A DNA stretch of 40,520 nucleotides from Escherichia phage phiYIO1-1 (PP079210); one strand, 5' to 3'; shown: positions 8,611-9,514, counted from the first letter of the stretch. Translations and numbers: made by a program. The notes: generated from the letters alone by a model not told the origin.

Positions 8611-9065
8611 TGGCCCAATGGTCTGCAAAACGGGGGCACTCTGTGGGTGCCTACCGCTCTGGACTTGAAGCCAAGAACCAGCAGTGGCTGGAACAGAACG
8701 GCGTCAAAGCGGAGTACGAAAGCCATTATATCAACTATGTGATTCCGGCTTCCGACCACAAGTACACACCAGATTTTATTCTTCCTAACGGTATCATCGT
8801 GGAGACCAAAGGTATCTTCGATAGTGATGACCGTAAGAAGCACCTTCTGGTACGAGAACAGCACCCAGAGTTAGACATCCGGTTCGTGTTCTCAAGTTCC
8901 CGCTCCAAGTTATACAAAGGGTCTCCGACCACGTATGGCGCATGGTGCGAAAAGAACGGCTTTAAGTATGCCGATAAGTTCATACCGGTTGAGTGGCTGC
9001 GAGAGACGACTGTACGTCTGCCTTCGGGTATACTCATTCCAAAAAAGAAAGGAGTTAAGAAATGA
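8610..9065 (+). CDS. Gene 3 endonuclease I (Holliday-junction resolvase)
   Basis: 151 aa; YVIPASDHKYTPDFILPNGIIVETKG, DDRKKHLLVREQHPELDIRFVFSSSRSKLYKGSPTTYG match T7 endonuclease I. Confidence 0.93.
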   Translation: MAQWSAKRGHSVGAYRSGLEAKNQQWLEQNGVKAEYESHYINYVIPASDHKYTPDFILPNGIIVETKGIFDSDDRKKHLLVREQHPELDIRFVFSSSRSKLYKGSPTTYGAWCEKNGFKYADKFIPVEWLRETTVRLPSGILIPKKKGVKK

Positions 9066-9514
9066 CTCGTAAAGCAATCATCGTTGACCTGATGGATGGT
9101 GATGCACATTCAGACAACTACAAGGCAGGACAGGAGGTCTTCGTTAAGTTCTCCCATAAGTCACTCAGCCCTAGTGATGGAGACCTGTGGCATGTGTCGC
9201 ATGATGGTGTCAAGTGGCTGGCCACAATGTATGGTCGCCGCCTGAAGTTTATAGCTGCTGGTGATAAACCTCAAGTCCTGCCAGCCTCAAGCGTCCCTCC
9301 TGTCACCGTTAAACGTGAAGTCCTGACCATCAACAAGATTGGTGTAGGCCAGACGTTCATCGTCCACGGTAAGCCTGACGAAGTGTACGTGAAGATTAGC
9401 AACTCTCACGTATTCAACCACAAGCGACTCCAGATGCACACGGCTGACGCACAGCGCTTCCAGTCACATCTGAATCTGGTGGTAGTAGAACTGGTGGTGT
9501 ACAATGGGAAGTAA
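9062..9514 (+). CDS. Hypothetical protein inserted between gene 3 and gene 3.5
   Basis: 150-aa ORF, AAAGGAG RBS, tightly packed between endonuclease I and lysozyme, which are adjacent in T7 as recalled. No motif recognised. Confidence 0.55.
   Translation: MTRKAIIVDLMDGDAHSDNYKAGQEVFVKFSHKSLSPSDGDLWHVSHDGVKWLATMYGRRLKFIAAGDKPQVLPASSVPPVTVKREVLTINKIGVGQTFIVHGKPDEVYVKISNSHVFNHKRLQMHTADAQRFQSHLNLVVVELVVYNGK

Follow-up and report, generated by a model that had tools for sequence, protein, structure and literature searches.

In bacteriophage T7, the genes for endonuclease I (gene 3) and the amidase/lysozyme (gene 3.5) are directly adjacent, the end of the former and the start of the latter both falling at position 10706, as stated in the initial annotation of the sequence studied here. 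T7 also provides the established timing of class II genes, and its class II host-interaction proteins, such as the RNA polymerase inhibitor gp2, are small, cytoplasmic and missing in some relatives. Homing endonucleases and mobile selfish genes are frequent inserts in T7-like genomes. K1F-like phages serve, also in engineered form, as agents against E. coli K1, Salmonella Typhi and Enterobacter. Accessory regions of phages have been described as variable counter-defence loci with conserved flanking genes (Silas et al., bioRxiv 10.1101/2023.04.06.535777), and the name gp3.2 is tabulated for Cronobacter phage Dev2 and Citrobacter phages SH4 and SH5 (PMC4925675). Citrobacter phage CR44b annotates the gene as 3.01, and in K1F an unnamed ORF of 156 aa, annotated as hypothetical (YP_338104.1), separates genes 3 and 3.5. 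In our literature search, no paper was found with the conserved motif of this family, the K1F accession or the PHROG identifiers, and gp3.2 appeared only in the genome table.

We analysed 40,520 nucleotides of Escherichia phage phiYIO1-1 (PP079210; hereafter the window), which represent a K1F-like coliphage of the genus Kayfunavirus with an endosialidase tailspike. The gene 3.2 product of the window belongs to the same family as Dev2 gp3.2 (YP_009005126.1, 74 aa), K1F YP_338104.1 and CR44b 3.01, occupies the same slot and shares their core and motif. It differs from this group at position 128, which is Ala in the window and Thr in nearly all relatives; Dev2 lacks any N-terminal module, whereas the window has a cassette of type A1, which is rarer (9 records) than the K1F-type B (56 records). 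Like accessory regions (bioRxiv 10.1101/2023.04.06.535777), the locus holds a variable segment between conserved genes that is exchanged among near-identical genomes and whose modules are shuffled, tandemly duplicated, fused and split. In accessory regions whole genes vary, however, whereas here a single domain of one gene varies and the core to which it is joined is strongly conserved. The gene 3.2 family is absent from the supplementary files of that accessory-gene screen. The product also resembles T7 gp2, gp5.5, gp5.7, gp5.9, gp4.5 and gp1.2 in being small, cytoplasmic, apparently encoded by a middle gene and missing in some relatives, but it has no sequence or detected structural similarity to them, and T7 has no counterpart at this slot. 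The family itself is known but uncharacterised; what is new here is its anatomy, a constant core joined to an exchangeable N-terminal cassette.

Gene 3.2 and its place in Kayfunavirus genomes

Gene 3.2 is a complete coding sequence on the plus strand (9062–9514 in the ORF list) that specifies 150 aa and ends in a TAA codon (9512–9514). It is well formed, as first annotated, and its ribosome-binding site, AAGGAG (9049–9054, plus strand, read from the sequence), lies 7 nt 5′ of the ATG at 9062, within the end of gene 3. The flanking genes are on the same strand, an arrangement also found in relatives. Endonuclease I is encoded at 8610–9065 (Phage_endo_I, PF05367, E = 6.8e-82), and the TGA stop codon of its gene overlaps the gene 3.2 start codon in the sequence ATGA (9062–9065). 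The amidase/lysozyme gene occupies 9504–9962 (Amidase_2, PF01510), and both its ribosome-binding site (GGTGGTG) and its start, again read from the sequence, sit within the final codons of gene 3.2. Overlapping start and stop codons had been claimed for both sides; we find them upstream, whereas the downstream junction is an 11-nt gene overlap beginning at the gene 3.5 start at 9504. Gene 3.2 is probably translationally coupled to both endonuclease I and the amidase.

The nearest upstream promoter for the phage RNA polymerase lies at 7843–7868 on the plus strand and has the consensus CTAAACTATCACTATAGG. It belongs to a ten-copy repeat family (D1) sharing this core, with sites spread across the window from 1910 to 39972 (for example, at 4986–5011, 7843–7868 and 17114–17139). 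The next copy, a weaker variant (CTAAACTATCACCTTAGGGA), is found at 10199–10229 before the primase/helicase gene. Neither promoter-like nor terminator-like sites were detected inside 9062–9514, nor any terminator-like site across 7843–9514. The promoter at 7843–7868 presumably drives genes 2.5, 3, 3.2 and 3.5 as a single transcript. As in T7 class II transcription, gene 3.2 lies downstream of a phage-polymerase promoter in the 1.x–6 block with no terminator between them, and by analogy it would be a class II (middle) gene co-transcribed with genes 2.5, 3 and 3.5.

The 5-kb surroundings of the gene are 95–98% identical to E. coli K1 phages such as PhiNW-B1, vB_EcoP_LNA3 and vB_EcoP_F, all of which are Kayfunavirus members. 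By tblastn, the protein is encoded in 218 of 50,697 GenBank phage records, mainly from phages of Escherichia, Salmonella, Enterobacter, Citrobacter, Shigella, Cronobacter and Klebsiella. At E ≤ 1e-3, it has 255 homologues. It is 98% identical to a metagenome protein (P0001) and 93% identical to its homologue in phage SHAK9454. The PHROGs search matched only two families, both of unknown function, and places the protein in them by profile: PHROG 16385 (E = 2.4e-53, residues 48–150) and PHROG 15211 (E = 1.4e-39, residues 81–150). A profile HMM, the sensitive search advised in the initial annotation, gave 17 matches among 1.84 billion representative proteins. Two of these are spurious (P0131, of 1872 aa, and P0136, FG-GAP-like), the others come from the same phage family, and no bacterial homologue was seen among the 17. 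A second, word-indexed profile search added only three divergent phage members.

We fetched 80 IMG/VR contigs via the amidase and inspected the junction between genes 3 and 3.5. Where the amidase is at least 79% identical (the Kayfunavirus clade), 22 of 23 contigs carry gene 3.2; where it is 68–78% identical, genes 3 and 3.5 abut in all 54 evaluable contigs with a gap of −1 to 9 nt, like in T7. The gene is indeed extra relative to T7, but the idea of an unusual insertion does not survive this mapping, since K1F, the 218 GenBank records and all but one of the clade contigs make it the normal occupant of this slot in Kayfunavirus. It is restricted to the genus rather than present in most T7-group genomes, and no housekeeping role is assigned to it. 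For genome annotation, gene 3.2 is ordinary and expected in K1F-like phages; it is an already catalogued gene annotated as hypothetical, not a special acquisition of the phage studied here. We are highly confident both of its identity as the Kayfunavirus 3.2/3.01 orthologue and of the anatomy set out below.

The sole clade contig without gene 3.2 is IMGVR_UViG_2974604219_000001 (L042; 40,291 bp). In its locus (1519–2960), gene 3 terminates in ...KKKGVKDIRT, and ahead of the real gene 3.5 comes a second copy of a ~390-nt segment that joins the start of gene 3.5 to the gene 3 end. This junction duplication may be a true rearrangement with deletion or an assembly artefact.

Several public records of the locus call for care. 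The feature table of Escherichia phage vB_EcoM_SHAK9454 (L001; OR594184.1, UNVERIFIED) is shifted by ~2.8 kb relative to its sequence, so the feature names under matches in this record are misleading: the true gene 3.2 homologue lies directly after gene 3 (locus 3001–3453), and the phrog 16385 annotation is placed at 226–678. An apparent second location of the gene between primase and polymerase in this phage, the best tblastn match, was rejected as a product of the same offset. In MT350292.1 ("Enterococcus phage EFA-1", labelled as an Enterococcus faecalis phage), gene 3.2 and the amidase gene are ~84% identical to the coliphage versions, and the host label is probably wrong. Salmonella phage PRF-SP1 (L002; MZ923531.2) has a 149-aa ORF at locus 2916–3365 that resembles an HNH endonuclease by eye. 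Such an HNH-like ORF is inserted between genes 3.2 and 3.5 in Salmonella Typhi and Paratyphi Kayfunaviruses, and the slot therefore accepts homing-endonuclease-type genes too. Gene 3.2 itself contains no HNH, GIY-YIG or LAGLIDADG nuclease motif and has no Pfam match.

The core and the N-terminal module

The constant part of the family is a basic C-terminal core domain, formed in the window by residues 83–150 (9308–9511, plus strand). Alignments show these ~68 aa to be nearly invariant, with a pI of 9.7–9.8 (9.4 in the Providencia clade). In many relatives, including vB_EcoP_F and Dev2, the core alone constitutes a gene of 74–76 aa that starts at the gene 3 stop codon (PHROG 15211). Divergent copies with cores ~30–40% identical occur in Providencia-type T7-like phages, also between Phage_endo_I and Amidase_2 genes. 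An alignment of the members defines an invariant motif block of polar and aromatic character, Y..SNSHxFN..QMHT..RF (9386–9460, plus strand), with 13 invariant columns: Y109, S113, N114, S115, H116, F118, N119, Q124, M125, H126, T127, R132 and F133. These columns are invariant down to ~30% identity, including the Providencia-phage clade, and all 13 residues are present in the window. The core is preceded by a Pro/Ser-rich linker (residues 67–82, AGDKPQVLPASSVPPV; 9260–9307, plus strand), which is kept in all long forms and has low pLDDT. An internal start that would yield a stand-alone core from the long gene was considered and rejected: the first in-frame ATG after residue 57 is that of M125, and inspection by eye revealed no in-frame GTG or TTG in codons 79–96, hence no candidate internal start.

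Modelling tentatively suggests that the core is an SH3-like small barrel. In the model, the invariant residues lie on the second strand, the following loop and strand, the fourth strand and a short helix, and they could form one surface. Weak fold matches include the ribosomal L2 C-terminal domain, EF-P domain I, KOW and HspQ. The predicted likeness to SH3-like barrels (eukaryotic SH3, FeoA, the DtxR C-terminal domain, EF-P domain I/KOW and the L2 C-terminal domain) would extend to fold class only: there is no sequence relationship to these families, as judged by the lack of a Pfam SH3, KOW or FeoA match, and structural scores are low. We know of no counterpart of the SNSH/QMHT motif in SH3-like barrel families.

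The absence of recognisable motifs, as reported in the initial annotation, extends to databases. The whole protein matched nothing in Pfam, NCBIfam or PADLOC even at E ≤ 10, and the Pfam families SH3, SH3b, KOW and FeoA were found neither for the whole protein at this threshold nor among 21 family members. Searches of the PDB by sequence, with the single protein or with the profile, gave no match, and fold searches of BFVD and the PDB returned only family members, generic barrels or uncharacterised (small phage) proteins. Counter-defence proteins (Ocr, Tad2/DUF2829 and others curated in Pfam) were not matched by Pfam, NCBIfam, PDB sequence or fold. No signal peptide or membrane segment was detected in the protein, and Rfam gave no match to the gene.

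The N-terminal module (residues 1–66; 9062–9259, plus strand) is the exchangeable part of the gene and is of cassette type A1 in the window. It is predicted with confidence to be an SH3-like β-barrel. Across the family, this part (residues ~1–66) falls into at least five types. A motif-based sort of the retrieved proteins, mostly cluster representatives at 90% identity, assigned 41 to type A (that of the window), 54 to type B (that of K1F), 6 to type C and 11 to type D/E; the 10 left unclassified are mainly A or B variants and truncations, together with one tandem form. Two loci (L013 and L020) have a further type. The pI of the modules ranges from 4.3 to 8.1. Profile–profile comparison detected no similarity between the types or to the core (hhalign probability <11% throughout), and we therefore rejected the idea that the cassettes are fast-diverged homologues of each other or of the core by internal duplication. 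A shared fold among them is possible. In GenBank phage records, type A1 is found in 9 of 50,697, comprising seven Enterobacter cloacae phages and two Escherichia phages; type A2 in 21, of which 20 are Salmonella phages; type B in 56, mostly Escherichia phages; and type D/E in 27 with mixed hosts (Escherichia, Enterobacter, Salmonella and Klebsiella phages).

Comparisons of close genomes delimit the exchanged segment. In blastn alignments with close relatives, homology stops at 9066, at the gene 3 stop codon, between flanks that are 93–99% identical. Relative to genomes with other cassettes (K1F and Vec13-type loci), homology resumes at 9263–9269, in the linker. Alignment of window positions 8000–10500 with vB_EcoP_F (L023) ends at 9066 and resumes at 9323, and the absent segment (9067–9322, plus strand), bounded by sequence of 99% and 95% identity, marks the maximum extent of the exchanged cassette. 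The closest backbones differ in cassette, PhiNW-B1 and LNA3 having type D/E and vB_EcoP_F none. Tandem N modules are present in three proteins (P0112, P0125 and P0036). In Providencia phage PSTRCR_120 (L115; MW358928.1), the gene 3.2 homologue is followed by a free-standing 117-aa ORF (locus 1659–2012) and then by the endolysin gene. The first 78 residues of this ORF are 79% identical to an N module fused to the core in another family member, the metagenome protein P0147. By sequence comparison, we regard the two as a natural fusion/fission pair.

The two halves of the gene also differ in their substitution patterns. Pairwise comparison of the last 66 codons, sampled in 23 distinct nucleotide versions, gave a median dN/dS of 0.13 and a mean dS of 0.84, and the core is under purifying selection. 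These values, together with the lack of an Rfam match and of an internal promoter or terminator, indicate that conservation acts at the protein level and led us to reject a hidden DNA or RNA element as its cause. In the N module, the window and SHAK9454 differ by five nonsynonymous and no synonymous changes, and the window and RDN8.1 give a dN/dS of 0.6–0.8, whereas the core in the same close pairs has a dS of 0.45–0.65 and a dN/dS of ~0.1. This contrast shows recombination between the gene halves. It also hints that selection on the N module is relaxed or diversifying, with the high ratios reflecting a handful of substitutions; distant type A pairs give a dN/dS of 0.14 in this module, consistent with ordinary purifying selection.

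The C-terminus of the K1F copy (L004; NC_007456.1, locus 3709–4179) diverges from the family consensus from residue 135 onward (...QMHTTGRTTLHPAHESSGRRIGGVQW). A frameshift seems to be the reason, whether genuine or due to a sequencing error in the record of 2005.

Candidate functions of the gene 3.2 product

The explanation that we favour overall, while holding it only tentatively, is that gene 3.2 encodes a modular two-part product that works as a dispensable adaptor or inhibitor. The mechanism, about which we are a shade more doubtful, is drawn from architecture and evolutionary pattern because the protein has no homology to a characterised protein. The product would be a two-module cytoplasmic protein in which a Pro-rich linker joins a constant basic core to an exchangeable, SH3-like N-terminal module. 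The core would dock onto a single conserved partner, which may be nucleic acid or a protein conserved in the phage or the host, and the N module would add a further binding specificity, differing from phage to phage. Such a protein could act in host takeover or counter-defence as an adaptor or inhibitor that the phage can do without, and homologous recombination in the stretch from the gene 3 end to the linker would generate new specificities. A constant core with a swappable module is the pattern expected of genes for host takeover, counter-defence or inter-phage competition. The host-takeover or counter-defence role, which was offered as speculation in the initial annotation, is still speculative, although the cassette-like nature of the N module, its relaxed constraint and the one natural genome without the gene lend it indirect support. 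The counter-defence idea in particular may be taken as a reasonable hypothesis.

Some of our observations sit less easily with an adaptor. Its dispensability leans on the evolutionary pattern and on the single contig lacking the gene, which may be misassembled, and the presence of the gene in almost every member of the genus would also suit a useful, housekeeping-like role. The N type partly tracks the host genus (A2 in Salmonella, A1 in Enterobacter and B in Escherichia phages), but this pattern could arise as easily from shared ancestry as from adaptation. In a related scheme that we consider rather unlikely, the gene would be a previously unrecognised modular effector platform whose SH3-like core engages a conserved hub (nucleic acid, host protein or phage protein) and whose cassettes, probably SH3-like too, retarget it to factors of host immunity or physiology; new specificities would come from recombining cassettes, stacking them in tandem, and fusing them with or splitting them off as free-standing genes.

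The main rival, to which we assign a fairly low probability, is a nucleic-acid-binding accessory of the DNA-metabolism module. Barrels of the Sso7d, KOW, L2 and Tudor types bind DNA or RNA, and a basic SH3-like core could likewise bind either, working with gp2.5 and endonuclease I to aid or restrain replication, recombination or the resolution of junctions, while the N module would do no more than tune the effect. The basic pI of the core, the presence of RNA- or DNA-associated barrels (L2 C-terminal domain, EF-P domain I, KOW and HspQ) among its weak fold matches, the location in what would be a class II DNA-metabolism operon with an ATGA overlap with gene 3, the synteny with endonuclease I down to ~30% identity and the retention in nearly every clade member all favour this explanation. 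It has to contend with the absence of the gene from T7, T3-like and other T7-like contigs examined, and with unrelated, often acidic N modules (pI 4.3–6.2) and tandem arrays that it would hardly explain. A partnership with the gene 3.5 amidase/lysozyme is less likely than a nucleic-acid-binding accessory, and we think it improbable. The protein would then be either an SH3b-like wall-binding helper in lysis or a factor that sets the timing of late transcription by modulating the interaction of the lysozyme with RNA polymerase. Lysins commonly bind the cell wall through SH3-type domains of the bacterial kind, and as gene 3.2 overlaps both the ribosome-binding site and the start codon of gene 3.5, synthesis of the two products may keep pace; yet gene 3.2 is just as tightly coupled to gene 3, and its coupling to gene 3.5 is not conserved, because the HNH gene in Salmonella phages or the other ORF in PSTRCR_120 intervenes. 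Nor does the protein match Pfam SH3b or contain a signal peptide or membrane segment, and since peptidoglycan is uniform among the enterobacterial hosts, the diversity of N modules would be left unexplained.

A further alternative is competition between phages, in which the N module would recognise a variable protein of a rival, either to exclude superinfecting phages or to interfere with T7-like phages in a co-infection. Its basis is the modular, fast-exchanging pattern that also underlies our preferred explanation, and the occurrence of A1 in Enterobacter phages and in the K1 coliphage studied here and of D/E in phages of four host genera fits a target that is not host-specific. We nonetheless give competition little chance of being the answer; sequence alone cannot tell it apart from counter-defence. 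The lack of an assigned function, and of any detectable family outside these phages, might suggest that gene 3.2 is a filler ORF with no function, or that its reading frame is open by chance within a conserved element of DNA or RNA. With synonymous divergence near saturation (dS 0.84) in a conserved protein (dN/dS 0.13), motif residues invariant even in the most divergent clade, no Rfam match, neither promoter nor terminator inside, a well-placed and good ribosome-binding site, and coupling to both neighbours, this is extremely improbable, and the selection analysis effectively refutes a non-functional ORF.

The modular architecture may be the one aspect of the gene worth follow-up. The protein is very small and is found genus-wide with a strictly conserved motif, and genomes that otherwise hardly differ encode it in stand-alone, single or tandem form, a natural domain-swap series. 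If the N cassettes bind targets of host defence or takeover, gene 3.2 would offer a compact model of how specificity evolves by domain exchange, and its locus would be an obvious site for host-range engineering.

Other features of the window and of a related genome

The tailspike gene of the window (32695–35889) encodes 1064 aa that comprise a T7 tail-fibre N-terminal domain followed by the full K1F-type endosialidase set (End_N_terminal, β-propeller, β-barrel, tail-spike and S74 chaperone domains). A tailspike with these domains indicates that the phage targets the polysialic-acid K1 capsule of E. coli. Short direct repeats with CCTACACCTACAGT units are found near the left end of the window (222–336) and again near the right end (40441–40489), which fits terminal-repeat regions of a complete linear T7-like genome.

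The region around the primase/helicase gene contains two further features. tRNA genes are unusual in T7-like phages, and Enterobacter phage vB_VIPECLMC06 (L033; PQ411323.1) has an annotated tRNA-Thr (locus 2692–2770) just 5′ of its primase/helicase gene. In the window, a 33-nt unit is tandemly duplicated at 12748–12813, between the primase/helicase and DNA polymerase genes, and its two copies are 91% identical.
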